Assembly: GCA_965221695.1 (NCBI GenBank)
Contig: OZ244905.1
Span: 2,336,001-2,400,000, forward strand
Origin: Gammaproteobacteria bacterium
GTDB taxonomy: Bacteria; Pseudomonadota; Gammaproteobacteria; Eutrophobiales; Eutrophobiaceae
Direction of reading: 5' to 3'
Length of the DNA stretch: 64,000 nt
Made by a program: the position numbers and the translations under genes. The notes below the pieces were generated by a model, which made no database searches, was not told the DNA's origin, and worked only from the letters and a program-made list of their open reading frames with translations. This document shows positions 6,475-24,226 of this stretch, piece by piece (the first letter of the stretch is position 1; every line of letters begins with the position of its first letter).

Positions 6475-6494
6475 GGTCAGCAGACCAAATGAAG

Positions 6495-6962: not shown

Positions 6963-8285
6963 CTAATCCAGCGAATAACATCCGATACTGTTGCCGTTTA
7001 CCCACTGTGCACAGCATCGGTTGCCCAACTGGTGCATCGGCGGCCCGCAGGTCAGACAGAATTTTGTCCCGGTTGTCATCCTGCTGTCGGCGTTGCAATT
7101 GGTCAGGGTACGCGTCTGCGTAAAGGTTTTTCCGGCGCAGATTGTATCCGCGGGAGGCGCCCAGGCCGTTGCCGCGCAGGAGAGGACAGGCGGTTTTGTG
7201 CCGATCGCGGTACGGCTCTCGGTACTGCAGTCAGCCAGAGTACGCGTTTGCGTAAAGGTTTCCCCACTCAAGACCGTATTGGCGGGAGGCGCCCAGGCCG
7301 TTGCCGCGCAGGAGGGGACAGGTGGTTTTGTGCCGATCGCGGTGCGGCTCTCGGTACTGCAGTCAGCCAGGGTACGCGTCTGCGTAAAGGTTTCCCCACT
7401 CAAGACCGTATTGGCGGGAGGCGCCCAGGCCGTTGCCGCGCAGGAGGGGACAGGTGGTTTTGTGCCGATCGCGGTACGGCTCTCGGTACTGCAGTCAGCC
7501 AGGGTACGCGTTTGCGTAAAGGTTTCCCCGCTCAAGACCGTACTGGCGGGAGGCGCCCAGGCCGTTGCCGCGCAGTATGAAGCGCATGATTTTGTGCCGA
7601 TCGCGGTGCGGTTCTCGATACTGCAATCAGCCAGCGTTCGGGACTGAGAGAAACTATCTCCGATACACACCGTGCCGGCGGACGGTTTCCAGGCGCTGAC
7701 TGAACAGACGCTTGTCGGAGGCGATGGCACGCGCGATGGAGGTGGAGAAACCGGTTCACAGGGTCCGTTGTCGACCTGCCCGGTGCGGCTCCTGACGGCA
7801 GGCACGCACAGGTTCGGGCAGGGTTTTTCAGCGTCGCCGGTCACCGTGCAAGCGCTTTGTTGTGTGTAACTGCGCACACCGCAGCCGGATGGCGGATTGC
7901 CGGTCCACGCTGACCAGGTTTCGGCTATCTGACACCAATCCTTTTCCGGGTTTGCTTTAATATGTTCAAGGAAGTTGTTGAACGCTGGTTCGTCTTTGAG
8001 CAGTACCGGAAATCCCCCTGCGCGATCTGGGTCGACCCATAACCGATACGGGTACGGGTGTTGCGTGCTACCACTGAAGCGTCTGACGATATTTCGGTCA
8101 TCTTCCGGCCACAGGATCATTATGTCTGGTTGACCGCTTTGCCAGTAACCTTCGTCGCCATAGTCGTTGGCGCGCTTAACGGTGTCGCTGATGGTCTGGG
8201 CATTGAGCGTATGAATAAACAGGAGCGCCGGCAATACTATGACGGCCAGAGATGTCGGAATTGTGGTTTTGTAGAACATGGTCAT
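6963..8285 (-). CDS. Secreted Cys-rich repeat protein with a thrombospondin-type-1-like segment; putative pilus-associated adhesin
   Basis: Signal peptide, a WSAW...CG..R segment and five 44-aa repeats. Last large gene of the pil cluster. Confidence 0.7.
   Translation of the reverse strand: MTMFYKTTIPTSLAVIVLPALLFIHTLNAQTISDTVKRANDYGDEGYWQSGQPDIMILWPEDDRNIVRRFSGSTQHPYPYRLWVDPDRAGGFPVLLKDEPAFNNFLEHIKANPEKDWCQIAETWSAWTGNPPSGCGVRSYTQQSACTVTGDAEKPCPNLCVPAVRSRTGQVDNGPCEPVSPPPSRVPSPPTSVCSVSAWKPSAGTVCIGDSFSQSRTLADCSIENRTAIGTKSCASYCAATAWAPPASTVLSGETFTQTRTLADCSTESRTAIGTKPPVPSCAATAWAPPANTVLSGETFTQTRTLADCSTESRTAIGTKPPVPSCAATAWAPPANTVLSGETFTQTRTLADCSTESRTAIGTKPPVLSCAATAWAPPADTICAGKTFTQTRTLTNCNADSRMTTGTKFCLTCGPPMHQLGNRCCAQWVNGNSIGCYSLD
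7047..7706 (-). repeat. Five in-frame 132-bp (44-aa) tandem repeats
   Basis: GCGGGAGGCGCCCAGG recurs at 7150, 7282, 7414 and 7546. Unit is CAATAWAPPANTVLSGETFTQTRTLADCSTESRTAIGTKPPVPS. Confidence 0.95.
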
Positions 8286-8290
8286 GATCC

Positions 8291-8941
8291 TTATGGGTTG
8301 ATGAGTATGTCGTTGAAGGTGGCGGTGGCGCCGATAATGATGTCTGCTTCGATGGTACCGTTGGCGTCAGAGTTTCTGGCAATGATGCGCAAAGCATTGG
8401 CCAATGAATTTCCGTTCAGGTCCAGCGCGTTGCCGATGCCGGCGCTGAAGCTCAACGGGCCGGTCATCTCGTCACCGGCACGTTGCACGAACAGGTCTTC
8501 AGCCTGCTCTTGGGTCACGAATAAGTCCAGCAAGGCCAGGTCGGTGGGGTCGGCAAAACCCACCGTGACCTCACTGTCGTTGACCTGCGCCACCGCGCCG
8601 AGGCGCGCGGAAATACGACCGGCCTCTGCGTTACTGGTAGCGTTATAACGAATGGTAAACCCTCCTGTTGCGGGAAAATCGAACACGGGTTCGGCAAAGC
8701 CCGGTTCAGCTTCCCAGACAGGCAGGTAATCACCCAGCGTATCGATATCTCCCGCATAAGCGCCTGCCTGCGGGTTGTTCGGGTCCGAGATATAACGGTG
8801 CTGGGCAAGGGCGAGTTGTACGATGCTGTTCTGAACCCGGTCCGGAACCAAGGAGCGCGCCCGTTCCTCTATCCTGAAACTCAGTCCCAGAGACAGCAGG
8901 CTGAACACCAGCATGAAATAAATGGTCGGCAATATATTCAT
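8291..8941 (-). CDS. Pilin-like protein, resembling the constant region of PilV-type minor pilins
   Basis: N-terminal hydrophobic helix, then QLALAQHRY...LGDYLP (pilin-like). C-terminal FVQRAGDEMTGPL and ALDLNGNSLANA motifs. Confidence 0.55.
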   Translation of the reverse strand: MNILPTIYFMLVFSLLSLGLSFRIEERARSLVPDRVQNSIVQLALAQHRYISDPNNPQAGAYAGDIDTLGDYLPVWEAEPGFAEPVFDFPATGGFTIRYNATSNAEAGRISARLGAVAQVNDSEVTVGFADPTDLALLDLFVTQEQAEDLFVQRAGDEMTGPLSFSAGIGNALDLNGNSLANALRIIARNSDANGTIEADIIIGATATFNDILINP

Positions 8942-9390
8942 GGCGTATTGCAGGAAAAATCGTTCCCTGCATAGGCAAACAGGTTGTACCAGTGGTTCGC
9001 CGCGCGGTAATAGGTAATGTCGTAAGCAGGGATGAATGTATGAGAACTGTCCGCTTCAAACTCACCGAGTGTGCGGGCGCCCAGGAATGCCAGGTAGGCG
9101 GCTTCCCCCCCGGCATTGATACTGATGGTGGGGTGACCCGCGAGGCGCCATGTGAACCTGACGCCTTGATCGGCGAAGTCGTTGTCCAGGTGGCCGGATG
9201 ACTGCAAACCTTCTGTGGTTACCGTCTCGGGCAGAGCGTCGCAATTGGCGCCGATGAACTCGGTTCCCGCGACCTGGATTTCCTCCAGGGTTTGCATGAA
9301 TGCGCGGGTTTGCCGCTGCGGTTGTATCATTATCGTCATGCCCGATATGAAAGCAATCGCCAACGCAAACTGGTATAAGGTAATGGGCAT
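8938..9390 (-). CDS. Minor pilin-like protein
   Basis: MPITLYQFALAIAFISG hydrophobic N-terminus, LEEIQVAGTEF helix and LQSSGHL. Located directly after the major pilin candidate. Confidence 0.55.
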   Translation of the reverse strand: MPITLYQFALAIAFISGMTIMIQPQRQTRAFMQTLEEIQVAGTEFIGANCDALPETVTTEGLQSSGHLDNDFADQGVRFTWRLAGHPTISINAGGEAAYLAFLGARTLGEFEADSSHTFIPAYDITYYRAANHWYNLFAYAGNDFSCNTP

Positions 9391-9393
9391 TGC

Positions 9394-9837
9394 CTATTCA
9401 ATGACGACAGTCAGGGTTGCAGTCGCGCAGGCGTTGGTGGTGTTGTCAGCATCAACATTGGCCCATTTACCTGCTTGCGCCCGGTCCAGCAGCCAGTTGC
9501 AGCTCTCCGCATCGCCGGCGTCATAGGTGATGGAGGGGGTCGTCGCACCGGGACTGGCAGTAATGTTTGTTTCTATCACACTCTCGCCGGTACCGTCATC
9601 ATATAACTCGGAGTCCAGGTAACCGTTATCTACCAGATCCTCAAAATCGGCGCTGGCCAGGGTGGTTTCTCCGCGATTCACCCAACGGTATTCCGAGGCC
9701 GCGTTGATCACGTTGATGATCTCCGCTTCCATATTACGGTTTTCCGATTGCGTGACCAGCGGCGCCAACGCGGTGTACGCGCCGAGGCCCACGATACTGG
9801 TAATGATTAATCCGAATACTATCGCAACTTGGTTCAT
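9394..9837 (-). CDS. pilS: Type IVb major pilin-like protein (PilS position)
   Basis: Strong GAGGAGG RBS. Hydrophobic N-helix, EIINVINAASEY, LVDNGYL and a C-terminal Cys pair (ESC...NAC). Follows the pilR-like gene. Confidence 0.65.
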   Translation of the reverse strand: MNQVAIVFGLIITSIVGLGAYTALAPLVTQSENRNMEAEIINVINAASEYRWVNRGETTLASADFEDLVDNGYLDSELYDDGTGESVIETNITASPGATTPSITYDAGDAESCNWLLDRAQAGKWANVDADNTTNACATATLTVVIE

Positions 9838-9856
9838 GATAATTTCCTCCTCTTGG

Positions 9857-10888
9857 TTAGATTTCAATTCCCGTACCCATAGACACCAGGGCAAAAGGGA
9901 TGGTGATAGTTATGCTCAGGCTTAAAAACAGGACTGTGTAGAATGCCCGGTAAGCCGTGATGGCCCTGGAGAGCCTGATGTCCAGCATCCGTCCGGCCAT
10001 ATCGAAGCCCCTGGCGATCTCCTCCGGGGTCTGGTTCGGAGTGCATGACAGCACATGCGCATATGCATAGGGTGACAGCACATCCTTCAGCGTCTGCAGC
10101 AGCGAGGCCTCTTTCAGCCTGGACCTGCTTGCGCGTAGCGTCTGCCCGAACTGGCGATGTGCGGCGAACGTGGTTTCCATCAGGCACAGGAACTCATCGG
10201 GCGGCAAGCGGGTGGAAATCAGCGCGCGGCTGATTTTCAGGAAACGCAGTTCGGTCAGCATCGCGCGAAACCGGAAACAGCCGCAGGCCATGAGCGCCGC
10301 GCGCAGCGGTCCGGTAACGCGATAGGCGCACCAGTGGTAAAAGACAATAGCGCCGGCCGTCAGCCCGGCCAGTTGCGTCCACCAGGCGCTGATGAAAGTC
10401 ACGTAGTCGAAGAACAGCGTATATCCGCTGGTATAGTTTTTCAGGTAGGGCAACATATAGATGGACATTGCGCTGATGACCACGCACATGAATAGCCACT
10501 GGATGCTGCCGGAGAGGACCTGCAAAACCACCGGCCCGCGCAAATCCTGCTCCAGCAACAGGTCTGTGACGGTGTCCATGCAGTCATGCTGTTCGCCCAG
10601 TATCAGCAGGCTGCATTCCTGTTCGGTAAACAACCCGGTCTCAGCGTAATGGGTCGCGAAAGGCTGGTTGTTGCGGATGGCCCGCTTGCTGAGCCTGGCG
10701 ATTTCACGCACAGCAGGGTTGTTGCTGTGTTCCTGGATGTGGTTGAAAATGCCCAGCAATGGAAACTGGCTTCTCAGGTATTCGCGCAAGGTGGCATAAA
10801 AGAATCTCCTGCTGTCGTGATTGAACAACAGGGCGCGCAGGTATAGCGACTTGAGACGATGCAGCCGTTTATTAATGATTCCAGGCAT
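9857..10888 (-). CDS. pilR: Type IV pilus inner-membrane platform protein (PilR/PilC/GspF family)
   Basis: RRFFYATLREYL...LILGEQ cytoplasmic domain and three TM segments; directly follows the ATPase. Confidence 0.7.
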   Translation of the reverse strand: MPGIINKRLHRLKSLYLRALLFNHDSRRFFYATLREYLRSQFPLLGIFNHIQEHSNNPAVREIARLSKRAIRNNQPFATHYAETGLFTEQECSLLILGEQHDCMDTVTDLLLEQDLRGPVVLQVLSGSIQWLFMCVVISAMSIYMLPYLKNYTSGYTLFFDYVTFISAWWTQLAGLTAGAIVFYHWCAYRVTGPLRAALMACGCFRFRAMLTELRFLKISRALISTRLPPDEFLCLMETTFAAHRQFGQTLRASRSRLKEASLLQTLKDVLSPYAYAHVLSCTPNQTPEEIARGFDMAGRMLDIRLSRAITAYRAFYTVLFLSLSITITIPFALVSMGTGIEI

Positions 10889-12485
10889 CGTACAGGTTCG
10901 CTCTGTTGAAATTACCGATCTTGCGCTGCGTGAGCAGCGGGTCCAGTTCGCCCTCGAATATTTTCGTACAGGCATGCTGGTGGATATTCAATATGCCGTT
11001 GTCCCGCATCCAGTCCCGTAGCGCCTGGGGGTTGGAGGTATCCATCAGCAGGCGCCGGTTGGCTTCGGTGATCGGTATGCATTCGGCCACCAGCGTCAGT
11101 TTTTCTATTCCCGAATACCGGCAGTTGTTGCAACCGCGCGCATTATGGTAACGCACAGTCCGGTTTGCATAGGCGCCGAAGCCCGCTCGATAATATTCGT
11201 GCCAGAACAGGTCTGCATGCCGTTCCAGTTTGCAGCGGTGGCACAGCACGCCTATCAGGGACTGGACGATGATCAGGCTCAGGAACGACTCGGAGAACAG
11301 GATATCGGGGCTGATCCCCAGGTCGGTTTTGGAGACCATCCGGTTGATCGCGTCAACCCAGCCGGAACCGTGGATGGACGCAATGCCGGTAGTCCCCTGG
11401 AGCATCATTGAAGAAGCCATCACTGCGGTTTCACGGTCGCGTATTTCGTTGATGGCAATGAAATCCACATCGTGACGGGTGGAAATGCGCCTGAGTTTTT
11501 CCTTGTTTTCCCGGATGATCTCCTCGGTGCCTTCGATGGGCAACTGGATTTGTACGAAATTGTCCAGTTCAACCTCGATCTGGTCGGAGATCTCCAGGTT
11601 TTTCTCCAGCGCCGGCCGGGTCTTCATGATCGCGGTCTGGGTCGTGGATTTACCGGAATTGACTGCGCCGATGATCAACGTGATGCCCTTGTTGGCCGAA
11701 ATCTGTTTCAGGGTCTGCAACTGGGTTTCATGGTAGCCGAGAGTGGCGATATCGGGGATAAGCTTCATGTCTCGCAAGCGGATGGCCAGGCTGCGTTCAT
11801 CATTTACCTTGGAATACCCGTAAGATACCCGGCACAGCCATTTCTGCCCCTTGTAGTCGTAATTGAAACGCCCGTCCTTGGCCACGTCGCCATTGCTGAA
11901 CGGCTGGTTCACGTAGATGTTCCAAACGGCCGCAATGATCTTTATGCCCTGGCTCTTGTCAAAGGACTGGCTTACCGACAGCCGCCCGAAAACACGTTGG
12001 TACACGGTCGTCTTGTTGTTCTTGATCTCCAGGTGGATGTCCGTAGCATTGTTGTTGATGGCCTGGGACAGCAGTTCATTGACCTGGTTGGAGCTTTCCC
12101 GGGTCTGTTGCTGCAGGGAAATCTCCTTGTTCCTGTTGATGAAGGATTCAAATACCGAACGCGTGGTCTCGTGGATCACAGGTTCCTTGTGATGCACATC
12201 CCTGATCAGGTTGATCAATTGATTCAACGCAAGCGCTTCATGCTTGTTGAGATCGCTGCGGTCGATGCAGTAGAGTTCGGCATCCTCGGCGATGAATCCC
12301 GGGCAGGCGCCGTTCATCTTTCGGGTTTCCGAAAGGATATCGGCATTGGTAGTGAGCTGCACGTTTTCCAGTTCTTCGTAATTGGTAATCAGCGGTGTGT
12401 CCTGGACCATATTATCCGGCGCGTCCTGTTCGAAGCTTGGCAGCGTGGGCGCCGGGTTCCTTTTTTTTAGGGTCTTGAACATCAT
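10872..12485 (-). CDS. pilQ: Type IV pilus assembly ATPase (PilQ/PilB/GspE family)
   Basis: ATDIHLE, Walker A GAVNSGKST, Walker B FIAINEIRD, SIH His box and a tetracysteine motif LCHRC...GCNNC. Confidence 0.9.
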   Translation of the reverse strand: MMFKTLKKRNPAPTLPSFEQDAPDNMVQDTPLITNYEELENVQLTTNADILSETRKMNGACPGFIAEDAELYCIDRSDLNKHEALALNQLINLIRDVHHKEPVIHETTRSVFESFINRNKEISLQQQTRESSNQVNELLSQAINNNATDIHLEIKNNKTTVYQRVFGRLSVSQSFDKSQGIKIIAAVWNIYVNQPFSNGDVAKDGRFNYDYKGQKWLCRVSYGYSKVNDERSLAIRLRDMKLIPDIATLGYHETQLQTLKQISANKGITLIIGAVNSGKSTTQTAIMKTRPALEKNLEISDQIEVELDNFVQIQLPIEGTEEIIRENKEKLRRISTRHDVDFIAINEIRDRETAVMASSMMLQGTTGIASIHGSGWVDAINRMVSKTDLGISPDILFSESFLSLIIVQSLIGVLCHRCKLERHADLFWHEYYRAGFGAYANRTVRYHNARGCNNCRYSGIEKLTLVAECIPITEANRRLLMDTSNPQALRDWMRDNGILNIHQHACTKIFEGELDPLLTQRKIGNFNRANLYDAWNH

Positions 12486-13165
12486 TGCCAGGGTACGATG
12501 TGTACCTGTTTACTGCCTTGGTCTTCAAGATGCACCTCGTGCCGGTTCCCGTTGCCCCGGTGTTTGACATGCTCCACCTTGACGATCTTGAACCTGCGCC
12601 GGTTGTGTTCGATCACACTGCCGACGGCAAGTGAGCGCGGCCGCCCATTGCTGATCAGCACGACGCTTGACTTGATTCCGAGTTCCTGGTTTTCATCATT
12701 GACATGCCCAACCGTCAGCCCGTCAATTCCTTGCTTCGGGACAGGTTTTTTGCGTGGTTTTGCCGGTTTCTTCACCGGTTGCGCGGGTTTTTTTGCCGGC
12801 GCCGGAGAGGCTTTCGGGGCTGCTTTGCGCGTTTTCAGCAACGCAGCCAGGTCCGGCCTGATCCGGATTAACTCTGCATCGACGGATTGCAGCAGGCCGG
12901 CATCGATGCGGTCCCGTTGCTGGTTGATTGCCTCGAGGATATCCAGCACCTGTTTGTAGTAAACCAGGTCGATTACAAGTTGTTCTTCGCGGTTGCAATG
13001 GGGGCAGGGAATGTCCTTGGCGGATGGTGCCGGCTTGGTGGTTGTTGCCGGTTGTTCCGGCGCCGGGCGGGCAGCCGGGACAGCCTTGTCATCCGCGATG
13101 ATTGGTTGCGCATGGACCTGGCACATAGAGGTTGCGAGCAGCAACGTGATTACGGTAGGTTTCAT
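12482..13165 (-). CDS. Periplasmic pilus biogenesis protein (PilP position)
   Basis: Signal peptide, coiled-coil, Pro/Lys-rich linker and a C-terminal beta domain; sits between the pilO-like gene and pilQ. Confidence 0.5.
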   Translation of the reverse strand: MKPTVITLLLATSMCQVHAQPIIADDKAVPAARPAPEQPATTTKPAPSAKDIPCPHCNREEQLVIDLVYYKQVLDILEAINQQRDRIDAGLLQSVDAELIRIRPDLAALLKTRKAAPKASPAPAKKPAQPVKKPAKPRKKPVPKQGIDGLTVGHVNDENQELGIKSSVVLISNGRPRSLAVGSVIEHNRRRFKIVKVEHVKHRGNGNRHEVHLEDQGSKQVHIVPWQ

Positions 13166-13166
13166 A

Positions 13167-16766: not shown

Positions 16767-18094
16767 CAGCGTTGACTCAGAAGACGCTGAAACACTGATC
16801 TCCAGGGACGGATATACATGTCCTCGGAGACGAACAGCCGCAGCTTACGGCCGTATTCAAGCGTTTGCGTCGGCGCCAGGCCGGCATACGGCGCGGCCAG
16901 GTCGGCGCCGGCCTCACGCAGCGCTTCGCCGACATCCGACTCAAACGTCGCGCCGGCCCCGCCGCTGCTGTAATCTGCGCGTGCAGTTTCGCTGGACAGC
17001 AGCGCAAAAGCCGCGGCGCCGCCGAACCGGGCCAGGAAATGAAAATTGGTTCTGCCTTTCAGCGCGCCGATTCCTTCGTGGTCAAGCGCCTGACTGATGA
17101 ACTTGATCTTTGTGCCGTCCGGCCGCACTATCCAGCGCAAGGACAAGGCCATCCGGTTGTTGATGATGCGGTTGGGGTGCGCCGAGCCGGTCTGCAACAC
17201 CTGTCCGGTGCACAGGGAACCGGCCGGAATCACAACATATCTTTGGGTAACATCCATCACGTTCTGTTCTATCCGGCAGCGGAACGGGCCTGCATAATCT
17301 GATATGATTTTCTGGTCCAGCTTTGCGTGCATCACCGAACCGATGGACAACAGCGCATAGTCTTCGCCGGGATGTCCGGACAGGTCCGACTCCGGGTACC
17401 CTGCCAGGTTGAGCAGGCGCGCAGTACTTCCTGCAACGTCATCCCCGGCTGCCGGGCCCCGTCGCGAGTCCAACAAGGGAGGCTGATCCCCGACAGCGTC
17501 CGTTCCGGGGCTGAAGCCGGCCGCGGCAAGCGCCGGTAGCGGTCCTGTTTCAACCCCCTGGCGCAGCTCCGCCAGGATTGCCCGTTCGTCTTGCAGGAAC
17601 CCACCATATGCATCAGCGGCGCCCTGTGGCGCGGTTTCGGGCGCGCCGGAAAAAAGCTCGAAGTTGAAATCCGCCTGTCTTGACTGGCGCACGCGCACGG
17701 TTTCATTCTCATCCCAGGATTCGAGCGCTGATTTGGCGCCACCGAGTAATTCCTGCAAGACCTGTTCGTTGTTCTGCAGCAATTGGTCGGCCCTTTCATC
17801 GATATAGTGCTTTTGTTCTGACAGGTCTTCCTCCCGTTGTTTCTGCAAGCGCTTCTCCTGGTTTTTGATCTGTTCACGAAACTCCTGTTCCGGACTGGAC
17901 AGGGCTTGCTTTCCGAGCTCCCGTTTTACCTGCTCTTCAATCTGTCTGTCTGCCGGGCCTGAGCGGAACAGCGAGGCATACACCATGACGATGACGACAA
18001 ACACCAGTGCGCCGATCAGCATGAGCTGGAAATTCCGGTTATAGGTTGCCGGCTGTTCCTCAACCTGGTTGGTTTCGTTCATCTTTGACGTCAT
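16766..18094 (-). CDS. virB10: T4SS VirB10/TrbI-family protein
   Basis: N-terminal TM and coiled coil, then a C-terminal TrbI domain (GSVMHAKLDQKIISDYAG, VIPAGS, DHEGIGALKG, HFLARFGGA, PTQTLEYG). Confidence 0.9.
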   Translation of the reverse strand: MTSKMNETNQVEEQPATYNRNFQLMLIGALVFVVIVMVYASLFRSGPADRQIEEQVKRELGKQALSSPEQEFREQIKNQEKRLQKQREEDLSEQKHYIDERADQLLQNNEQVLQELLGGAKSALESWDENETVRVRQSRQADFNFELFSGAPETAPQGAADAYGGFLQDERAILAELRQGVETGPLPALAAAGFSPGTDAVGDQPPLLDSRRGPAAGDDVAGSTARLLNLAGYPESDLSGHPGEDYALLSIGSVMHAKLDQKIISDYAGPFRCRIEQNVMDVTQRYVVIPAGSLCTGQVLQTGSAHPNRIINNRMALSLRWIVRPDGTKIKFISQALDHEGIGALKGRTNFHFLARFGGAAAFALLSSETARADYSSGGAGATFESDVGEALREAGADLAAPYAGLAPTQTLEYGRKLRLFVSEDMYIRPWRSVFQRLLSQR

Positions 18095-18097
18095 GAT

Positions 18098-18922
18098 CTA
18101 CAAGTCCCGCTGCCCGCGATAATCGTTGCGCCGGCTGATGGTGATCTGCGTCCCGGCGTCAGCCTTCATATGGATTCGGTTGAATATGCCGGTCACGATG
18201 TAGATGCGCCTGTTTTCATCGTATCGGTACTCGATGAATTGTTCCTGGCCGTTGTTGTCGGCAAACAGTGACATTGCGCCATCCAGGTTGTGGCGTACCC
18301 GTATGTAGGTGAAACGGCCGTCATCATAAACATCGCTGACCAGGTCTTTCCCGTATGGCCGGCGCCCGCCCTTCCAGTCATAGCCCGTGAACAGTTGCAT
18401 CCGGTACTCATCCAGCGCCGCGCTTACCCTGTCGGTAGCGGTCTGTTGCTGTTCGTCAAGTTGTAATTGGAGCGCGCCGAGTTGTTCCCGGTAAAACGCC
18501 GTCTCATCCTCGGCGCGTCGATCAAAGCCGGAGAATGCGCCTTCCGGCAGGAATTCGCCGTCATGGGTAATGACCACGCACAGGTCAAACGCATCATCCG
18601 AGCGTTCCACCAGGAAATGGTAGGCGCGGTTGCTTTGTGAGACCGCGGTAACGGTAGTGCTGCCGCCTTCCGTTGTCCCGGCGTCGTTCGGTTTGACGAA
18701 AATATGCCGGTTCTCGCCTTCGACATCCCACAAGTCGCGATTTCCGGTCACCGGCCTGGCAATCAGGATTTCCGGCAGTTCGATATGGGTGCCGTGATGC
18801 AGCCTGGATTGGATGCGTATGAACTTATGCTGTTCATAGTTGACCATGCGGCACTGTTCGCCCTCGGCATAAACAGTTGCGCTGACTGCCAGCAGAAAAA
18901 GGAATAGGTTAAGCCGGGTCAT
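18098..18922 (-). CDS. virB9: T4SS VirB9/TrbG-family protein
   Basis: Signal peptide, THIELP, HIFVKP, RAYHFL and VYDDGRFTYI. Confidence 0.9.
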   Translation of the reverse strand: MTRLNLFLFLLAVSATVYAEGEQCRMVNYEQHKFIRIQSRLHHGTHIELPEILIARPVTGNRDLWDVEGENRHIFVKPNDAGTTEGGSTTVTAVSQSNRAYHFLVERSDDAFDLCVVITHDGEFLPEGAFSGFDRRAEDETAFYREQLGALQLQLDEQQQTATDRVSAALDEYRMQLFTGYDWKGGRRPYGKDLVSDVYDDGRFTYIRVRHNLDGAMSLFADNNGQEQFIEYRYDENRRIYIVTGIFNRIHMKADAGTQITISRRNDYRGQRDL

Positions 18923-19649
18923 CCAGAACTTTCTCCTCGATAATTTTCAGGCCAATGGGGTTTGCCATCAGTACATTTCTGTCCCTGGACAGGGCCGACC
19001 GGGGGGTAAGCCGCCAGCGCAATGTAACGATTGCCCGCCGGGCGCTCAGCACGCGCTGATCGGCCCCGGAGAGCAGTAATTCGTTGATATATACGTTAGT
19101 CCGGTAACTGGTGTCATCGGGATTGCCACCGGCCAGGCGGTCCATGTCGAAATGGTAAATATTTCTGACCTCCACTTGTCTGATATTGCAATCTGTACAG
19201 GCCCTGATCCTGGCCGCTTTGCCCGCGGCGTCAAACCCGGAAGACGATTTGAAATAATTGGCCAATGACCGGTCCATCAGCGCCAGCGCAAATCCGTAGT
19301 CATTGCGGATGGTGGCCGGGTCTGTGCGGAAGCGGCGGGTGACATAGTTGCTCAACAGGTGGTCGATGGTCGCCGGGAAGAAGTCCGCCTCATCCTTGTG
19401 CGCGAACCGGGTGTCGATGAACCAGGTACCGTCCGGCGCCAGTTTCACGTAAATCAGTTTTTCATTGTTCTTTGCAATGAGCGTGACTGCAATGCCGTAT
19501 GCAAGCGCGCAGAGGAATGCCAGCAACAGCACGAGATTGCCGGCCAACAGCCTGTTGTTGGTCACCACCAGGCCCGGAATATTGTCGGGATTAAGGTGTG
19601 CAGCCAGTCCTTCCGGCACTGCGCCAATCGTTTTTGCGGTCATTTCCAT
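18909..19649 (-). CDS. virB8: T4SS VirB8/TrbF-family protein
   Basis: Single TM, LSNYVTRRF and the C-terminal NPIGLKI motif. Confidence 0.88.
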   Translation of the reverse strand: MEMTAKTIGAVPEGLAAHLNPDNIPGLVVTNNRLLAGNLVLLLAFLCALAYGIAVTLIAKNNEKLIYVKLAPDGTWFIDTRFAHKDEADFFPATIDHLLSNYVTRRFRTDPATIRNDYGFALALMDRSLANYFKSSSGFDAAGKAARIRACTDCNIRQVEVRNIYHFDMDRLAGGNPDDTSYRTNVYINELLLSGADQRVLSARRAIVTLRWRLTPRSALSRDRNVLMANPIGLKIIEEKVLDDPA

Positions 19650-19652
19650 AAA

Positions 19653-20798
19653 TCATCTCACCAGTCTTGCAGACAGCATGGAGGCAGCCTGGTTAATCGC
19701 GCCCGACGCGCTCATGCCTCCCCGGGTCAGGTCGCTCACTACCCGGTCGGTCCTGAACATCGCATATACCGCGATCATCAATAGCCCGGAATAATTCAGC
19801 AGTTGCAGGAAATTATCGGGAGTCAGCGTCATTATTTCGCCGTCAACGATGATCGAATCGAACAGTTCGATCACGATCAAAGTGGTAAATGCGATATTGA
19901 TCTGCGCGACGATGAAATAGGCCACCGAACCCAGCATGAAGTTGAGCCAACTGTCAAAATACGGGCTGGCGCGTTTGAATATCAGGAACGGGATAAAGAT
20001 CGGCCCCAGCACCTTGCCGAGCAGCAGGCTCCACAGGCCGACTACCGATATGATCCAGGACACGGTGAAGACGATAAACAGCACAATAAAGAAGATGCCC
20101 AGGAATATGGTATCGCGCACACTGATGGCGAAGTTGGTGAACATCGAGAAAAATCCGGAATTGCCGGTTTTCGGCTCAAAGGTGAACTGTTCCATGATCT
20201 GGTTGACCATATCCAGCAGGAACACGCCGGTGGATTCAATACCGGACGCGCCCAGGTTCAGCGACCGGTAGGCAGTCTGACTTATATCGTCGGACAGGAC
20301 CGTGATGATTTCCCATAAAAACGCGAGCAGATAATTATAGGATTGCAGCAGTGACTGTGCGATAAGAATCATCAGTACGACGAAGATTACGTCCTTCACT
20401 GCGGCCGCGCCGGTGGTCCACTTGAGCAGGATGATGACCAGCGCACACACGGTAAACGTAGTCCATTCAAGTTCCGAGAAACGGTAAAGTTCCGTGGAGA
20501 CGCCAATCAGATCGTCGGTCAGCCGGCTTGCCTTGTTGAAGAATTCAGCGAGGAAGCCGGCAGGGTCGATCGGCGCTGCCTGCGCCGCGGGAGTCATGAC
20601 CAGCAACGCCGCGCCTGCTCCGGGTAGTGCGCCGGCAGACACTCTCTCACTTGTCTTGTTGGCGCCGGCTGGCATGTGCTTCCGCAACCGTACGCCGCGG
20701 CACGCTTGCGGTTGCAGGCACCCGCCTGTGCTGAAATTCCAACAGGGGCATCGCATCCGCTGATGCAATGTCCGGGTTGATGTAAATTGCCTGATCAT
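19653..20798 (-). CDS. virB6: T4SS VirB6/TrbL-family polytopic membrane protein (start uncertain; 20675 possible)
   Basis: Multiple TMs and LGPIFIPFLIF...YFDSWLNF, typical of VirB6. Confidence 0.85.
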   Translation of the reverse strand: MIRQFTSTRTLHQRMRCPCWNFSTGGCLQPQACRGVRLRKHMPAGANKTSERVSAGALPGAGAALLVMTPAAQAAPIDPAGFLAEFFNKASRLTDDLIGVSTELYRFSELEWTTFTVCALVIILLKWTTGAAAVKDVIFVVLMILIAQSLLQSYNYLLAFLWEIITVLSDDISQTAYRSLNLGASGIESTGVFLLDMVNQIMEQFTFEPKTGNSGFFSMFTNFAISVRDTIFLGIFFIVLFIVFTVSWIISVVGLWSLLLGKVLGPIFIPFLIFKRASPYFDSWLNFMLGSVAYFIVAQINIAFTTLIVIELFDSIIVDGEIMTLTPDNFLQLLNYSGLLMIAVYAMFRTDRVVSDLTRGGMSASGAINQAASMLSARLVR

Positions 20799-20804
20799 CC
20801 CGTA

Positions 20805-21647
20805 TCAGTCCCGTTTAAGTGTCAGGTCGCGCCAGCGGAACGGCCGCGGCGCGGCGCTCTCGTTGGCCACCCGTTGCAGGCGTTCGGCTTCGGCCCGGCG
20901 CTGGGCCTGCGCCATTGACAGCGCGTGCATGTAATCGTGATTCGAATGCAGCAGGCGCTGGTTCTGGATTTTATTCAGCGCCTGCAGTTCATCGATGATA
21001 TGGAAGTTGGTTGTTACCGCCGTCTGCAGGGCGTTCAGGTCGCTCTTGTCGCCCAGGTCGAAATTCTCTTTTGTTATCCCGATTTTTCGGTAGCGTTCGA
21101 GCAGTTCCCGGTTGCCATCCAGCGCGAGTTCCAACTGGTCCCGGTAAGCTTCGTAACGCGCCCGGTGGCGGTGCGCCTGGGTTTCCCAAGGCGCTGGGTC
21201 TACGCCGGCGTCAGCAAACCGGCGACGAACCTCGTCGGCCCGGTCCGGCACCCGATAGAGTTTATCCACCTCGGCGTCTATCGCCTCCCGGGCGGTGTTG
21301 CCATTGCCGGTGATCTTCGTGATGCGCGCGTAGGGGCTGATACCGTATTGGTTCTTCAGCGTCTGGAACAGGCCGTTCCAGTCGTTGCGGGAGATCACGC
21401 GCTGCAACCCCCTGACCTGTTGCAGGTAGTCATCGTATTGCTTCAGGGTCTGGTAGAAGTGCCTGTTGAGCGTGGACAACTGTTCGGTATTGAGGTTTGC
21501 CTGTTGTAACTGGATCTCAAAATCACGCAACTGCTGCTGGTAGGCGATGATCTGCCGTGCGATGACTCCGGCATCAACCGTCGGAATCCCCGCGCCATGG
21601 GCCGCGCCGAACAGAAAACAGCAAAAGATAAATACGAACCTGCGCAT
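20805..21647 (-). CDS. virB5: T4SS VirB5/TrbJ-like protein
   Basis: Signal peptide followed by AGIPTVD and Gln-rich helices. TGATG coupling to virB4. Confidence 0.75.
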   Translation of the reverse strand: MRRFVFIFCCFLFGAAHGAGIPTVDAGVIARQIIAYQQQLRDFEIQLQQANLNTEQLSTLNRHFYQTLKQYDDYLQQVRGLQRVISRNDWNGLFQTLKNQYGISPYARITKITGNGNTAREAIDAEVDKLYRVPDRADEVRRRFADAGVDPAPWETQAHRHRARYEAYRDQLELALDGNRELLERYRKIGITKENFDLGDKSDLNALQTAVTTNFHIIDELQALNKIQNQRLLHSNHDYMHALSMAQAQRRAEAERLQRVANESAAPRPFRWRDLTLKRD

Positions 21648-24226
21648 CAGGCTTCCATCCCAGGGTGGCCGGCCAGCGCCGCCATGGTCTTGCTGACGCC
21701 GGCTGCAAAACCATAACGTTCGACATTTTTGAAATACAGGTTCTGCTCCGCCGGACTGGATGTCGATAATACGTATTGCTCCGGTTCGACTGACAGGATG
21801 CATTTCTTCGAGACGTTCAAATCACGCTGTATCAGGTAAAACTCCCGCTTCGGGATCATGCTTTTTATGGTTTCCATCTCTCCCTCTTTCAGGTTGAAGA
21901 TCGATCGGTACGCGTCCCGGTTCAACTCCGGGTCGGCGGTAAAGATAAAGGTCGAGGCCGCGCTGCGCAGCGCTTCCCAGTTTTCGATGTTGCCGAGTTC
22001 GATACCGGACTGTGTCCACATGCCGATACCTGCGAGCAGCTTGCCCCAGGTGCGCACCCTGTCCAGCAACAGCGTCCTGGTCAGTTCAGGGTCGGACAAA
22101 ATATGATGGCACTCATCCACATCGAGCCACTTGGGACAGGCGCGTATCGCCGGGTTTTCATAAAAGCGCATGACCCGGTACGCAATTTCCGCCATCACCA
22201 GTGGTTTGGCCACGCTATCGTCCCGGATGCCCGCCAGGTTGTAGACTGCCACCTTCCTGTCCATCGACCCGATTGCGTCCTGTTCGGCGTCGAACAGTCG
22301 GGCATAAGCGCCGTTCCCGGCGAAACGGGCCAGTTTCCTCTGCACCGGTCCGGGGCAGTGTTTCAGCAGCGCCGTCAGGCTTTGCAGGTGGCGCGGTAAC
22401 CTGAGCGCCTGCCGTATCGCACGATCCAGGGCAAGCTGGTCAGCGCCGGACATTCGCCGCAATTCCTCGGAGTCGTTCGTGCTGATCATCGCCATGAGTT
22501 GGCGGTTCAAATGCGCAATGAACAAGGTGTCATCCTGGCCGCGCGCCTGCGAGAAGAAATTCAGGCAGAGCGCTTGTGCGCCGTCGAAGCGTATGATCCC
22601 GGCGTCGGCGCCGAACGCATGGGCAATGGGTTCGGAACCGGGGTCGATATCTATGGCCCGGTAAAATCCCCCGTACTTGGGCCAATGGATCCCGGTGCAG
22701 GTGCGCAGGAATGATTTGCCGCTGCGCACCGGGCCCACGCCGATCAGAAAACCCCTCCCGCCGGTAAACGGCGAGAAATAATACGGTGAATCGTCCCCCG
22801 ACAAGAAGATATATTGCGCTTCTTCGTCGCCCAGGTCGTCGACGGTTTTTGCGCCTTGGGCGGACTTGTAGAACAACGCCAGGGTGGAAAATTGCGAGGT
22901 ATTAAGCGGTATGTCCCGAAAAAACCGGCCGCGATGGTCTGCGCAAGGTTGCAGGTCAAAAAATACATCCGTCTGCGCTACGGTTTCCCAAAGTATGCTG
23001 AACTGGTTCTGTTGCAACGCGGACTGCAACAATGCCGTGGTCTGTTCCAGTTCCTTGATGTCGGCATCGAAAACCACCGCGTGGGTGGCGACCAGTCCGA
23101 GGTTATCCTTCAGGGAAGCCGCTTCATCAAGTTCCTGGAATTTCCGTATCAGTGATGGGCGGAATACCTGCATGTCCCGGTCCTTTTGCGTGCTGCCGTC
23201 AAGTCCCTTGATAAAATCCGTGAAACTGAGCGTCTCCCGTTCCAACTCCTTCTTGCGGTTGAAGAAGAACAATGTCTTCGATGCCTCGGTCATGCCTTTG
23301 TACCGGGTGGTCAACACGTAGTTCCCCGGCGTTTTTATCGGCCCCCTGGCAAACAGCCCGGGCGAGAACCGGTCAAAGTTGAACTGTTTTACCGACAGCA
23401 CGCGCGCGTAGGTCTTCCTGCGATTCTGCAGCCGCAAGATGTCCATGCCGTTCAAGCTGATCGGTGTGACCTGCCCGTCTGACAGGTCGGTATCGATGAC
23501 CTGCGGGCAACGCAACCCGGAGTCCAGGTAGTTCACTTCCAGGGTTGCCAGGAATTTCATCACCCGGTAGGTTTCATCAAGATCGAGTTGCCGGGTCCGG
23601 AACAGGCCACTGCAATAATTGATGATGTCGCGTATCCGGGTTTCAAGCGCCGGCGCCAGTTTGTCCAGGGCGCGCTTCGATGTATTGCGCGCGTGCCCGT
23701 ACATGATGAAACGCTTGACGTAATCCCTGGATGCGGGGTCGCGCAAGCACTTGGACAAGTGGCGCAGGAACAGCGCCAGGCTGGACTGGTCCTGGCGCTC
23801 GGGCAACATCTCGACGAACAGTACACAGCGGGCGCCCGCCAGGCGCAACCGGTTCAGGTGTCTTTCCCGGTAGGTGTTCAACGCGTTGCATACGGGATTT
23901 GTCCGCGGGGCAAAAGACACCTTTTGATCGCGGTAGTGGACGTAATAGTGCTGCAGCACGACGGACTGTGGCAGGATATTCAGCAGGTTCCTGATCACTA
24001 TGGAGAATGCCTCCATGTCCTTGTGCGACATCCCGTCGGGGTCGATGCCGTCTACTTCGATAGCCCCCACCAGGGAGCCTGTATAAGAAAGCACGAACCC
24101 GTTACAGGGTCTGTATGCGCCGTGATAAATGTGGACGGGTTCTCCGTTTATCAAATCCATGCCTTTAGCTATCCGTAAAGGTGGTGGTAGTTTCACCGCC
24201 GCTGCGCCGCTGGCGCCCGACGGCAT
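21647..24226 (-). CDS. virB4: T4SS VirB4 ATPase
   Basis: 859 aa with Walker A GPVRSGKS, AIDID, Walker B LDVDECHH and RTWGK...MWTQS. Confidence 0.92.
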   Translation of the reverse strand: MPSGASGAAAVKLPPPLRIAKGMDLINGEPVHIYHGAYRPCNGFVLSYTGSLVGAIEVDGIDPDGMSHKDMEAFSIVIRNLLNILPQSVVLQHYYVHYRDQKVSFAPRTNPVCNALNTYRERHLNRLRLAGARCVLFVEMLPERQDQSSLALFLRHLSKCLRDPASRDYVKRFIMYGHARNTSKRALDKLAPALETRIRDIINYCSGLFRTRQLDLDETYRVMKFLATLEVNYLDSGLRCPQVIDTDLSDGQVTPISLNGMDILRLQNRRKTYARVLSVKQFNFDRFSPGLFARGPIKTPGNYVLTTRYKGMTEASKTLFFFNRKKELERETLSFTDFIKGLDGSTQKDRDMQVFRPSLIRKFQELDEAASLKDNLGLVATHAVVFDADIKELEQTTALLQSALQQNQFSILWETVAQTDVFFDLQPCADHRGRFFRDIPLNTSQFSTLALFYKSAQGAKTVDDLGDEEAQYIFLSGDDSPYYFSPFTGGRGFLIGVGPVRSGKSFLRTCTGIHWPKYGGFYRAIDIDPGSEPIAHAFGADAGIIRFDGAQALCLNFFSQARGQDDTLFIAHLNRQLMAMISTNDSEELRRMSGADQLALDRAIRQALRLPRHLQSLTALLKHCPGPVQRKLARFAGNGAYARLFDAEQDAIGSMDRKVAVYNLAGIRDDSVAKPLVMAEIAYRVMRFYENPAIRACPKWLDVDECHHILSDPELTRTLLLDRVRTWGKLLAGIGMWTQSGIELGNIENWEALRSAASTFIFTADPELNRDAYRSIFNLKEGEMETIKSMIPKREFYLIQRDLNVSKKCILSVEPEQYVLSTSSPAEQNLYFKNVERYGFAAGVSKTMAALAGHPGMEA

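Follow-up and report, generated by a model that had tools for sequence, protein, structure and literature searches.

In R64 and other I-complex plasmids, TP114 (IncI2) and ICE PAPI-1, a compact pilus cluster with the order lipoprotein, secretin, two accessory genes, ATPase, platform and pilins adjoins a type IV secretion system (T4SS); IncI2 plasmids carry a T4SS of the VirB type. The Aeromonas plasmid pS121-1b has this very order, with genes of similar length, beside ICE-type transfer genes. Helicobacter ComB is a chromosomal T4SS without a relaxase and, to our knowledge, works without VirB11 and VirD4. Published accounts of I-complex plasmids and PAPI-1 assign their type IV pili to mating-pair stabilisation or recipient recognition (PMC9045228, PMC7508951, PMC12282955, PMC5297154). 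The operon analysed here, within a 64,000-nt stretch of chromosome (the window), shares this adjacency and pilus order but differs in having no relaxase, shufflon, rci or in-cluster prepilin peptidase, and it is chromosomal and vertically inherited. Similarity to pS121-1b is marginal (pN 20%, pQ 25%, other genes undetectable).

The operon comprises 16 intact, co-directional and tightly coupled minus-strand ORFs (6963-24226, Table 1). The genes virB4, virB5-like, virB6, virB8, virB9 and virB10 are followed by genes for a lipoprotein (pL), a secretin (pN), two orphans (pO, pP), a GspE-type ATPase (pQ) and a GspF-type platform (pR), then by three pilin-like genes (pS, p150, p216) and a repeat protein (p440), the names pilO, pilP and pilS-V being positional only. 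Sixteen consecutive minus-strand genes with TGATG at the virB4/virB5-like and virB10/pL junctions had been described by an earlier reading made without database searches (the sequence-only reading), and both features can be read in the DNA; its spacing of about 190 bp to nnrU is likewise borne out, at 190 bp if the longest ORF is taken for virB4. Since VirB4 homologues have 834-837 aa, the true start is suggested to lie about 22 codons further in. From the gene spacing, the T4SS block and the pilus cluster are predicted to be co-transcribed, as a single transcriptionally fused unit. Promoter-like sites are not enriched over shuffles (12 versus 10.9), and operon GC resembles that of the flanks.

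Table 1. Operon genes (window positions) and associated loci in the genome under study (G000) and in genomes G050 and G054.
Feature	Coordinates	Strand	Junction with next gene	Evidence
Promoter-like site upstream of virB4	24240..24267	-		TTGACC-16-TAGAAT, 10/12 matches, best in region
virB4 ATPase	21647..24226, likely start near 24160	-	TGATG, 1-nt overlap	TIGR00929 E 3.6e-43, far below NCBI curated cut-off
virB5-like secreted protein	20805..21647	-	6-nt gap	280 aa, start 21647, TGATG-coupled to virB4
virB6/trbL	19653..20798	-	3-nt gap	PF04610 40.8 bits, cut-off 25.9
virB8	18909..19649	-	14-nt overlap	PF04335 28.7 bits, cut-off 23.2
virB9	18098..18922	-	3-nt gap	PF03524 65.6 bits, cut-off 34.2; TIGR02781 1.2e-10
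virB10	16766..18094	-	TGATG	PF03743 82.1 bits, cut-off 35; NF038091 1.2e-17
pL two-domain lipoprotein	15861..16766	-	~20-nt overlap	T4SS-type N-domain, variable linker, secretin-type N0 C-domain (modelled)
pN secretin, PilN/MshL-like	14336..15883	-	ATGA	TIGR02519 (MshL) 1.2e-12, TIGR02520 3e-11, both below cut-offs
pO orphan, PilO position	13167..14339	-	1-nt gap	No Pfam or NCBIfam match
pP orphan secreted protein, PilP position	12482..13165	-	ATGATG	Signal-peptide-like N-terminus, Pro/Lys-rich stretch
pQ GspE/PilB-type assembly ATPase	10872..12485	-	Overlap or short gap, set by choice of start	PF00437 143.7 bits; GspE 2.7e-41, PilB 3.8e-34
pR GspF/PilC-type platform	9857..10975	-	19-nt gap with GGAGG inside	PF00482 22.5 bits, just under 25.2 cut-off
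pS type IV pilin-like protein	9394..9837	-	3-nt gap	147 aa; RBS GGAGG; ATG common to all orthologues
p150 minor-pilin candidate	8938..9390	-	ATGA	Small, N-terminal hydrophobic helix (sequence reading); kept in 15/15 loci
p216 minor-pilin candidate	8291..8941	-	5-nt gap	N-terminal hydrophobic helix (sequence reading); kept in 15/15 loci
p440 secreted Cys-rich repeat protein, adhesin candidate	6963..8285	-		Variable
virB3-virB2	G000:C1:1655703-1656327 (1.656 Mb)			VirB3 PF05101 25.3 bits, above cut-off
virB11 divergent from virD4-like T4CP	1604791-1607751 (1.605 Mb)	divergent		VirB11 T2SSE 166.5 bits, TIGR02788 6e-55
Accessory T4SS-pilus island G050	about G050:C1:4172693-4192214			pil genes after virB10
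Accessory T4SS-pilus island G054	about G054:C4:957188-977752			pil genes after virB10

Most family matches in both halves lie below curated cut-offs; TrbL/VirB6, VirB8, CagX/VirB9 and TrbI/VirB10 all exceed their Pfam cut-offs. VirB4 carries the motifs GPVRSGKS (Walker A) and DVDE (Walker B), and the profile of its homologues found TrwK/VirB4 as its sole match in the PDB (E 9e-11). The virB5-like product has a signal-peptide-like N-terminus, matches TIGR02791 only at E 0.0036 and is 30% identical to the post-virB4 gene of a Desulfatitalea locus (L028). As the sequence-only reading stated, the window contains no virB2, virB3, virB11, T4CP, relaxase, integrase or tRNA gene, the absences at 42.6-64 kb being based on genome-wide family searches. 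The virB3 gene lies at 1.656 Mb beside virB2, a 97-aa ORF whose product has two hydrophobic helices and a signal peptide and matches TrbC/VirB2 at E 7e-4, which is under the cut-off, and virB11 lies at 1.605 Mb, divergent from the T4CP gene (PF02534 21.7 bits versus cut-off 20.1; TraG-D_C 24.4 versus 22). All four ATPases retain intact Walker motifs. Because the chromosome carries these ‘missing’ genes outside the window, the T4SS is a complete VirB/VirD4-type system with its genes split over three chromosomal loci. In the genomes of basal species (G057, G042, G047, G044), virB3-virB2 stands directly 5′ of virB4; metagenome contig L054 carries D4<>B11-B3-B2-B4 contiguously (VirB4 54%, D4 47%, B11 46% identical), and L036 carries D4<>B11-x-x-B4-B5-B6-B8-B9.

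We surveyed 126 genomes of the order, covering 22 species (23 genomes) of the genus and 103 genomes from 33 sister genera. VirB4 was present in 22/22 species and in 0/103 sister-genus genomes; the T4CP and VirB11 orthologues (at least 71% identity) were also present in 22/22 species, VirB3 in 20/22 and VirB2 in 19/22, the misses falling in fragmented assemblies (G036 and G043, 77-83% complete; G041, 220 contigs). Apart from VirB11 paralogues of 34-40% identity, searches of the 33 other genera gave no VirB2, VirB3, VirB11 or T4CP. The gene order from virB4 to pilS, and of 15 genes in all, is identical in the 15/15 loci fetched, with p440 as the exception; flanking genes are conserved across the genus, and purifying selection is evident from dN/dS values of 0.08-0.42 in four species pairs, outside one saturated pair. 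Judged from these comparisons, the system is vertically inherited within an uncultured gammaproteobacterial genus, in keeping with the ‘domesticated’ chromosomal machine that had been suggested.

The pilus half is divergent. The pN secretin shares 20-26% identity with the genes that occupy the secretin position in pil clusters of plasmids, pQ matches T2SSE (E 7.6e-42; Walker A GAVNSGKS), and pR matches T2SSF at E 1e-4, its start being uncertain (alternatives 10888 and 10828). The 67 homologues of pO, all 38-94% identical, are devoid of Pfam domains, and those few that bear a name are ‘hypothetical protein’ throughout; 37 representatives were found among 1.84 billion at E<=1e-3, and 0/23 remote members had a relevant Pfam family. 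No link of pO or pP to PilO or PilP, or of pO to positional equivalents in the pil clusters of conjugative elements, was detectable, and the Pfam search with pP gave matches at chance level only. The AF2 model of pS (pLDDT 84.4) has an N-terminal helix (3-53) followed by a β-sheet, and its best structural matches are the ETEC type IVb pilin (Z 7.3), TcpA (Z 6.6) and S. Typhi PilS (Z 5.7), values in a range (5.7-9.0, for pL as well) that the tool itself grades as middling; Cys113 and Cys137 are invariant. On this modelling, pS has a pilin fold and the pilus half is type-IVb-like. The pilin-like proteins do not show the Gly(-1)/Glu(+5) motif of classical prepilins, and family searches with p150 gave no match. 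The operon has no prepilin peptidase gene; the sole Peptidase_A24 gene of the genome lies at 1.544 Mb, and p216 was rejected for this role, having one hydrophobic segment only. The p440 gene, with a 132-bp tandem repeat x4 at 7104-7634, is present in 9/15 loci, fragmentary in 1 and missing in 5.

Clusters of a T4SS plus a pilus are not new, and the hybrid layout is not unique: one plasmid and two accessory islands within this genus share it. Shewanella xiamenensis FH-1 plasmid unnamed2 (NZ_CP106876) has the same T4SS-then-pilus layout, with trbB-C-D-E-J-L-F-G-(H)-I and, immediately after it, 10 co-directional pil-like genes (265, 498, 376, 198, 540, 343, 164, 170, 326 and 237 aa); it differs in being a plasmid with a typed MOBP relaxase and with T4CP, TraF and the relaxase region in one block, and in tblastn only pQ (23%), B11 and D4 matched. 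The islands in G050 and G054 carry a homologous pil family 3′ of virB10 (pN 36-52%, pQ 51-58%, p216 33-44%; pO and pR detectable), G054 having all ten genes from pN to p440 (p440 30%). Unlike the operon, they hold canonical VirB3-B10, VirB11 and VirD4 (PF02534 3e-108) in one block; canonical VirD4 occurs in only 2/23 genus genomes, and the identity between island VirB4 and that of the window does not exceed 22%. The G050 island has a GC of 0.62-0.69 versus 0.48-0.57 in its flanks and a tyrosine integrase 4.5 kb off. A VirB4 of 32-39% identity occurs in the plasmid T4SS clade of E. coli pLAU-OXA4 (NZ_CP045281) and Marinobacter pD15-8W (NZ_AP028879) and in MAG loci L028-L043, ordered as two small genes, B4, B5, B6, B8, B9, B10 and then a gene whose product is a homologue of the pL N-domain, with the T4CP divergent from VirB11 as here; those of known context are plasmid-borne, and pilus genes followed virB10 in none of 18 distant loci and the two plasmids.

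We propose, with moderate confidence, that the operon provides the main portion of a complete, relaxase-free T4SS derived from a conjugative element, in which the pilus draws in a target for transfer. An ancestor of the genus would have acquired the T4SS from such an element, with vertical descent since. By analogy with conjugative elements that have type IV pili, the pilus may attach to a target cell and draw it in, after which the T4SS would transfer its substrate, driven by VirB4, VirB11 and the T4CP; this substrate is more likely a protein than relaxase-piloted DNA since no relaxase is kept.

It is unlikely that the system is still a conjugation apparatus, mobilising the chromosome or in-trans mobilisable elements through a relaxase beyond current models. 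The T4CP is retained, and pilus partners of documented systems serve conjugation (PMC9045228, PMC12282955). Of the 153 records of the nearest VirB4-related plasmids, 146 are typed ‘mobilizable’ or ‘non-mobilizable’ and 7 conjugative, so that known models miss parts of the transfer machinery of this VirB4 clade. Typing assigns most of these plasmid relatives no known relaxase, and one encoded here could therefore escape recognition. Against this, relaxase families PF03432, PF08751, PF07514 and PF03389 had 0 matches in the genome (PF03432 occurs in only 5/23 genus genomes), and the ORFs of ten relatives’ loci, T4SS parts aside, revealed no further T4SS-linked partner in it. Its only two tyrosine recombinases lie at 2.69 and 3.17 Mb, outside the window; none of the three T4SS loci has an integrase, tRNA or island boundary, and position and vertical inheritance hold genus-wide. 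The sequence-only reading had named virB2, virB3, virD4 and a relaxase elsewhere, with an integrase, as speaking against it: the T4SS genes were indeed found, co-inherited, whereas a relaxase and a nearby integrase were not.

How the two halves may be joined is indicated by pL, which has a signal sequence followed by an invariant Cys34 and gave no Pfam match in 14/14 orthologues. With E values of 1.6e-10 to 8.6e-3, an HMM of its N-domain matches proteins from loci that have a T4SS only; five of these proteins are encoded immediately 3′ of virB10. The modelled C-domain (pLDDT 65-89) resembles the N0 domains of EscC (Z 9.0) and of BfpG from the BfpB-BfpG T4b complex (Z 8.4, 82/88 residues), as well as X. 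citri VirB7 (Z 7.7 and 7.0) and DotD (Z 5.7), again in the middling range; Atlas leads were TcpQ and DotD. From the N0 lipoproteins BfpG (partner of the type IVb secretin BfpB), TcpQ, DotD and X. citri VirB7, pL differs by its extra T4SS-type domain and variable linker, and it has no sequence-family match. An HMM of the C-domain also matches the VirB10 C-terminus of the G054 (E 7.7e-22) and G050 (E 1.1e-6) islands, so that in all three lineages a T4SS protein carries a fused N0 domain. Complex prediction for pL(205-301) and pN scored 0.34 (‘weak support’; best of 3 controls 0.00); the runs shared 72% or more of their contacts, and partner pLDDT was 69 or higher. The pass mark is reached by 58/80 solved complexes and 2/110 mismatched pairs, passes at or below 0.60 including only 7/80 solved complexes but both of those mismatches; the pL-pN pass may reflect memorisation by the predictor, the BfpB-BfpG complex being already solved. 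As the T4SS-only VirB7 of X. citri also has an N0 domain, the pL C-domain need not bind a secretin. That N0 is joined in this operon to the lipoprotein domain of a T4SS, and in the islands to VirB10, suggests physical coupling of the machines, and we infer that the fusion probably anchors the secretin of the pilus on the core of the T4SS.

Such coupling bears on the quite improbable alternative of two independent machines, neighbours by descent, with the pilus serving adhesion or aggregation and the T4SS separate, working or not. Type IV pili function alone in many bacteria, p440 is dispensable in 5/15 species, and the pil module has been block-replaced in G048 and G040 (dS 0.8-2.0 versus 0.14-0.32 for T4SS genes), thus behaving as a separable unit. 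The TGATG junction, adjacency conserved in 15/15 loci, the occurrence of the pil family 3′ of virB10 in two other T4SS lineages that are unrelated, the N0 fusion in all three lineages and the restriction of pO homologues, where context is readable, to T4SS-plus-pil contexts argue the other way.

The absence of virB2, virB3, virB11 and virD4 from the window had led the sequence-only reading to a reduced channel with VirB4 as sole ATPase and a type IVb pilus replacing the VirB2 pilus, used for ComB-like DNA uptake. With these genes encoded and co-inherited elsewhere, VirB11-family ATPase and T4CP included, this is highly improbable: a VirB2/TrbC-type pilin gene is present beside virB3, and its product is 78-100% identical genus-wide, above VirB4 conservation. 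The ComB analogy fails because VirB11, VirD4, VirB2 and VirB3 are all kept, co-inherited and contiguous with virB4 in basal species and outside relatives. A strain-specific, decaying remnant of an integrated conjugative element, to which scattering over three loci and relaxase loss would fit, is scarcely credible against 16 intact ORFs, 15 of them in order in 15/15 species, intact ATPase motifs, dN/dS well below 1 and retention in 22/22 species.

For the favoured relaxase-free T4SS, contact-dependent transfer aided by an adhesive pilus is the likely function, in which the N0 domain of pL may link the pilus secretin to the T4SS core. The new lead is this secretin-type N0 domain joined to T4SS proteins.

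The operon is organised as the sequence-only reading had described it: the ORFs and all junctions, read from the sequence, give 16 co-directional minus-strand genes, and the virB4/virB5-like and virB10/pL pairs each share the A of TGATG, pL being a two-domain lipoprotein gene between the T4SS and pilus halves. ATGA overlaps occur at pN/pO and p150/p216, ATGATG at pP/pQ and a 14-nt overlap at virB8/virB9; the further junctions are gaps of 1-19 nt, with GGAGG inside that of pR/pS. TrbL/VirB6, VirB8, CagX/VirB9 and TrbI/VirB10 exceed their Pfam gathering scores, and the virB5-like gene is a putative assignment from a match at E 0.0036 plus its position. VirB4 possesses Walker A and B motifs and matches TIGR00929 at E 3.6e-43, far under the NCBI curated cut-off; its profile matches TrwK in the PDB (E 9e-11), and phmmer of the single sequence against the PDB returned no match at E<=0.001, so we regard it as a divergent member of its family. 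No VirB1-type gene is present in the operon, and seven genes of its distal half have no Pfam or NCBIfam match. An ORF considered as virB3 beyond the virB4 end was rejected on its overlap with nnrU and because the genuine virB3 lies elsewhere (table).

The same reading had proposed a reduced T4SS, similar to ComB, in which the pilus stands in for that of VirB2. G000, the genome of the window, is one 3.54-Mb contig with the operon virB4 as its sole VirB4, and a genome-wide check for the missing genes located virB2, virB3, virB11 and a virD4-type gene at other chromosomal loci, which contradicts the reduced reading; the lack of a relaxase, which it had noted for the window, held for G000 with the four families searched. 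The virB11/T4CP pair is bordered by argH, asmA, mutY and pepA-type genes, the virB3/virB2 locus sits just upstream of a recA-like gene, and all four ATPases (VirB4, VirB11, the T4CP and that of the pilus) retain intact Walker motifs.

Coordinates of the T4SS genes outside the operon and of other features (G000, window's genome; L003, fetched locus containing the virB11/virD4 region; other L numbers, further fetched loci)
Feature	Location	Size or content	Evidence or remark
T4CP, VirD4-like	G000 1606078-1607751	557 aa	PF02534 21.7 bits (cut-off 20.1); TraG-D_C PF12696 24.4 (cut-off 22); TIGR03743
VirB11/TrbB/TadA-family ATPase	~290 bp from T4CP, divergent	331 aa	T2SSE 166.5 bits; TIGR02788 6e-55
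VirB3	G000 1.656 Mb	102 aa	PF05101 25.3 bits (cut-off 23.9)
VirB2/TrbC	adjoining virB3	97-aa ORF	E 7e-4, below cut-off; signal peptide and two hydrophobic helices, like VirB2 pilins
Operon	window 6963-24226, minus strand	16 genes	
p440 repeats	window 7104-7634	four tandem 132-bp copies	91% matches; encode Cys-containing 44-aa repeats
ORF convergent with operon end	window 6489-6788 (+)	99 aa	58-73% conserved in 11/15 loci; without Pfam match
ORF rejected as virB3	window 24317-24610	97 aa	
Amidohydrolase and AAA_14/DUF4143 ATPase pair	window 3291-6414		a few kb past operon end
Second amidohydrolase and AAA_14/DUF4143 pair	L003:661-3568		~8 kb from virB11/virD4
REP-like copies, virB11/virD4 intergenic	G000 1605948; L003:11880-11960		
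REP-like tandem cluster	G000:C1:1656412-1656990; L048		just upstream of virB3
Sole Peptidase_A24 gene	G000 1.544 Mb		
Two PF00589 tyrosine recombinases	G000 2.69 and 3.17 Mb	296 and 299 aa	XerC/XerD-sized frames
Lower-GC stretch	window 30000-46000	three Rieske/VanA-type oxygenases, TonB-dependent receptor, MFS transporters, TPP enzyme, aminotransferases	GC 0.46-0.52 vs 0.55-0.61
Divergent pilus module of G048/G040	~10.2-19 kb of each of L055/L056	pN to p440	break within or just after pL
ORFs by the G050 island	L071:1-1930 (G050:C1:4166000-4167930)		just upstream of the T4SS-pilus island
Split T4CP homologue, Methylophagaceae MAG	L036:5736-7622	263- and 245-aa ORFs	short virB9, no virB10 after

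These genes are inherited together. The 126 genomes searched belong to 34 genera and one family of the order; they are G000, 22 further species of its genus and 103 genomes of the other 33 genera. VirB4 and the T4CP occur in all 22 species of the genus and in none of the other genera (VirB4, 0/103), and VirB11 orthologues (>=71% identity) likewise occur in 22/22, the other genera having only paralogues of 34-40%. VirB3 was found in 20 and VirB2 in 19 of the 22 species and neither in the 33 other genera, the misses being two genomes that are 77-83% complete (G036 and G043) and one in 220 contigs (G041). VirB2 is 78-100% identical within the genus and more conserved than VirB4, which is hard to reconcile with its replacement by a pilus. 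ComB-type DNA-uptake systems function without VirB11 and VirD4; here VirB11 and a VirD4-type protein are present and co-inherited, and the likeness to ComB falls away. The VirB/VirD4 (P-type) system of this genus is complete, conserved and relaxase-free.

The virB3-virB2 pair immediately precedes virB4 in the four species with the most divergent VirB4 (G057, G042, G047 and G044). Metagenome contig L054, with a VirB4 of 54% identity, carries D4, divergent from hyp-B11-B3-B2-B4, in a single block, and a Methylophagaceae MAG (L036) has D4 divergent from B11, two small ORFs, B4, B5, B6, B8 and B9. Contiguity in the basal species and in outside relatives thus indicates that the ancestral layout was contiguous and that the three-locus state of G000 is derived. 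In the Methylophagaceae locus the T4CP homologue is split (table), possibly a sign of decay in this relative. A family of REP-like palindromic repeats, with 72 occurrences of a 10-nt core in the G000 genome versus about 7 expected, has copies between virB11 and virD4 and beside virB3, and may have contributed to the scattering of the T4SS genes. Two amidohydrolase/AAA_14 gene pairs, one near the operon and one near virB11/virD4, may be paralogous segments from rearrangement or a coincidence.

The operon itself is conserved across the genus. A related-locus search yielded 22 close loci of 73-99% identity, every one of them titled as an uncultured gammaproteobacterial MAG and two labelled Enterobacteriaceae, together with 18 distant loci at 27-48% identity. 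The virB4-to-pil synteny is kept in relatives, the order from virB4 to p216 being identical in 15/15 full-length loci; the last gene, p440, is full-length in nine of these, a fragment in one and absent from five. Most species share nnrU-ligT-cinA-tadA-SDR on the upstream side and a 99-aa ORF with an amidohydrolase on the downstream side. The NG86 dN/dS ratios, a check that the sequence-only reading had proposed, lie at 0.08-0.42 for every gene in four pairs of species, one saturated pair excepted, which denotes purifying selection.

The operon has a GC content of 0.54-0.60, similar to that of its immediate flanks, which encode ordinary metabolic and housekeeping functions and are conserved in the genus, and the window has no tRNA, as had been claimed. 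No integrase lies near the three loci, the only PF00589 tyrosine recombinases of G000 being two remote ones (table); with two such frames in 3.54 Mb, G000 appears poor in integrated elements. When the ORFs of ten relatives' loci and plasmids were compared with G000, the only matches were to T4SS parts and housekeeping-like genes. Further along the window, the stretch of lower GC resembles a catabolic island that was acquired separately.

The main rival explanation is conjugation with an unrecognised relaxase. Searches of G000 limited to the four relaxase families PF03432, PF08751, PF07514 and PF03389 gave no match, and PF03432 occurs in only 5 of the 23 genus genomes. The closest named VirB4 relatives (32-35% identity) are plasmid-borne, and 146 of the 153 matched plasmid records are typed as mobilizable or non-mobilizable by MOB-suite. 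The gene order of E. coli pLAU-OXA4 and Marinobacter pD15-8W is the same, down to a short protein that follows virB10, and pilus genes are absent from both. Pilus genes follow virB10 in none of the 18 distant loci, and a metagenome scan with intermediate VirB4s gave one locus only.

In the pilus half, the assembly ATPase pQ matches T2SSE at 143.7 bits (E 7.6e-42), the platform protein pR matches T2SSF at 22.5 bits, just under the cut-off of 25.2, and pN (515 aa) matches the MshL model at 1e-12 and the PilN secretin model at 3e-11, both below cut-offs; a PDB sequence search of pN gave no match. The pS protein has 147 aa, a start common to all orthologues and two invariant C-terminal cysteines, and its model (pLDDT 84.4) consists of a 50-residue N-terminal helix and a small sheet. 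A structure search independent of Foldseek, in which Z <8 can reflect a common arrangement, matched this model to the ETEC type IVb pilin (Z 7.3, 130 residues aligned, rmsd 3.5), TcpA (6.6), E. coli 'PilM' (6.0), C. difficile PilA1 (5.8) and S. Typhi PilS (5.7). Foldseek found nothing for pS at E<=0.001, TcpA being the best at 0.15, and a PDB profile search with pS gave no match. We predict from the model that pS is the major pilin and has a type IV pilin fold. The classical Gly(-1)/Glu(+5) class III signal motif is absent from pS and from the minor-pilin candidates p150 and p216, and the operon has no multi-pass prepilin peptidase, the sole Peptidase_A24 gene of the genome lying elsewhere. 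As a candidate for the prepilin peptidase PilU, p216 was rejected on its single hydrophobic segment.

The proteins at the PilO and PilP positions have no Pfam or NCBIfam match. For pO, 67 homologues were recovered, with identities of 38-94%; they have no Pfam domain, and where a name is given, in a few cases, it is 'hypothetical protein'. A set of 1.84 billion proteins contained 37 representatives. A relevant Pfam family was present in 0/23 remote pO relatives, the pO profile had no match in the PDB, and hhalign of pO with its positional counterparts from the Aeromonas and Shewanella plasmids returned a probability of 0.2. The pil cluster of Aeromonas pS121-1b has the same gene order and similar sizes. 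Clusters of the R64/PAPI-1 type possess a PilV adhesin with a shufflon and Rci, whereas here no recombinase lies near the operon and the last gene encodes a tandem-repeat protein. The secretin, ATPase, platform, pilin fold and gene order justify the label 'type-IVb-like', and we stop short of placing the cluster in the R64/PAPI-1 (PilL-PilV) family proper.

A pilus cluster behind a T4SS also occurs elsewhere. A Shewanella plasmid carries trbB to trbI, immediately followed by ten co-directional pil-like genes, then a region with TraF, a T4CP and a relaxase. Within the genus, canonical VirD4 occurs in only 2 of 23 genomes, G050 and G054, each with a T4SS-pilus island. The high-GC island of G050 reads VirB3-B4-x-B6-B8-B9-B10, pN-pO-x-pQ-pR-x-p216-like, VirB11 and VirD4, with an integrase 4.5 kb off; the starts of the ORFs just upstream of it are, we presume, typical of type I-C Cas proteins. 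G054 has a core operon 99% identical to that of the window plus a separate island, B11-D4-B3-B4-B5-B6-B8-B9-B10 followed by ten pilus genes from pN to p440 (pN 52%, pQ 58%). The VirB4s of both islands are at most 22% identical to the window VirB4, and the operon and the two islands together tie the pilus family to at least three different T4SS lineages.

In two further species of the genus, G048 and G040, the core operon carries a divergent second pilus module (pN 52-54% and pO 38-39% identical), and its T4SS genes are 79-86% identical to those of the window. The dS values are 0.8-2.0 for the pilus genes versus 0.14-0.32 for the T4SS genes, and the variant runs from pN to p440; it is a block replacement. 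The G054 and G050 islands were rejected as its source, with pN 48% and 37-38% identical.

The junction gene pL encodes two conserved domains joined by a linker variable in length and sequence, and a relevant Pfam family was found in none of 14 pL orthologues. An HMM of the N-domain (residues 55-158) matched, at E 1.6e-10 to 8.6e-3, eight proteins from loci that have a T4SS only; the genes of five come immediately after virB10. This domain may be a VirB7 equivalent; its model is of low confidence (mean pLDDT 49.7). The C-domain (212-299) was modelled at pLDDT 65-89 with a secretin N0 fold, and its structural matches are EscC (Z 9.0), BfpG of the BfpB-BfpG type IVb complex (8.4), the GspD N0 domain (8.1), X. 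citri VirB7 (7.7) and DotD (5.7), the atlas leads being TcpQ and DotD. The C-domain HMM also matches the C-terminal extension of VirB10 in the G054 (E 7.7e-22) and G050 (E 1.1e-6) islands and nothing else in G000. Complex prediction of pL(205-301) with pN scored 0.34 versus 0.00 for the best control ('weak support'), a pass that the solved BfpB-BfpG structure may explain. In three lineages an N0 domain, placed just before the secretin gene, forms a fusion with an outer-membrane protein of the T4SS, which is read as a sign of physical coupling. Literature searches on T4SS/type IV pilus, symbiont, ICE and IncI2 topics found no description of the operon or of the N0-VirB10 fusion.

Type IV pili that aid conjugation are usually regarded as mere accessories beside the T4SS. 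In the I-complex plasmids and PAPI-1 the role of the pilus is attachment to the target cell, according to PMC9045228, PMC7508951, PMC12282955 and PMC5297154. The pilus of the present operon would by analogy attach to a target cell, and the T4SS would then transfer a substrate into it. The swapped modules and the variability of the last gene are consistent with a shifting target specificity. We tentatively propose, while holding it to be rather unlikely in its entirety, that the T4SS and the type-IVb-like pilus form one physically coupled envelope machine, in which N0 docks the pilus secretin by the outer-membrane core of the T4SS and retraction of the pilus brings the target cell onto the channel; the relaxase would have been lost and the machine exapted as a vertically inherited contact-dependent injector, its pilus module and adhesin being swapped to change the target.

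The observation from which the sequence-only reading started is thus real, and its headline fails, as the T4SS is complete and VirB2 is encoded. The pairing of a T4SS with a type IV pilus is already known; what is distinctive here is the genus-wide domestication, the scattering of the genes and the N0 fusions. For annotation the case is a warning, since the T4SS seems 'reduced' only if one locus is read. With the same pilus family after virB10 and an N0 fusion in three independent T4SS lineages, physical coupling becomes a testable idea. For this uncultured gammaproteobacterial genus, a complete, scattered and relaxase-free T4SS under purifying selection represents a conjugation apparatus that has become an organelle belonging to its host.
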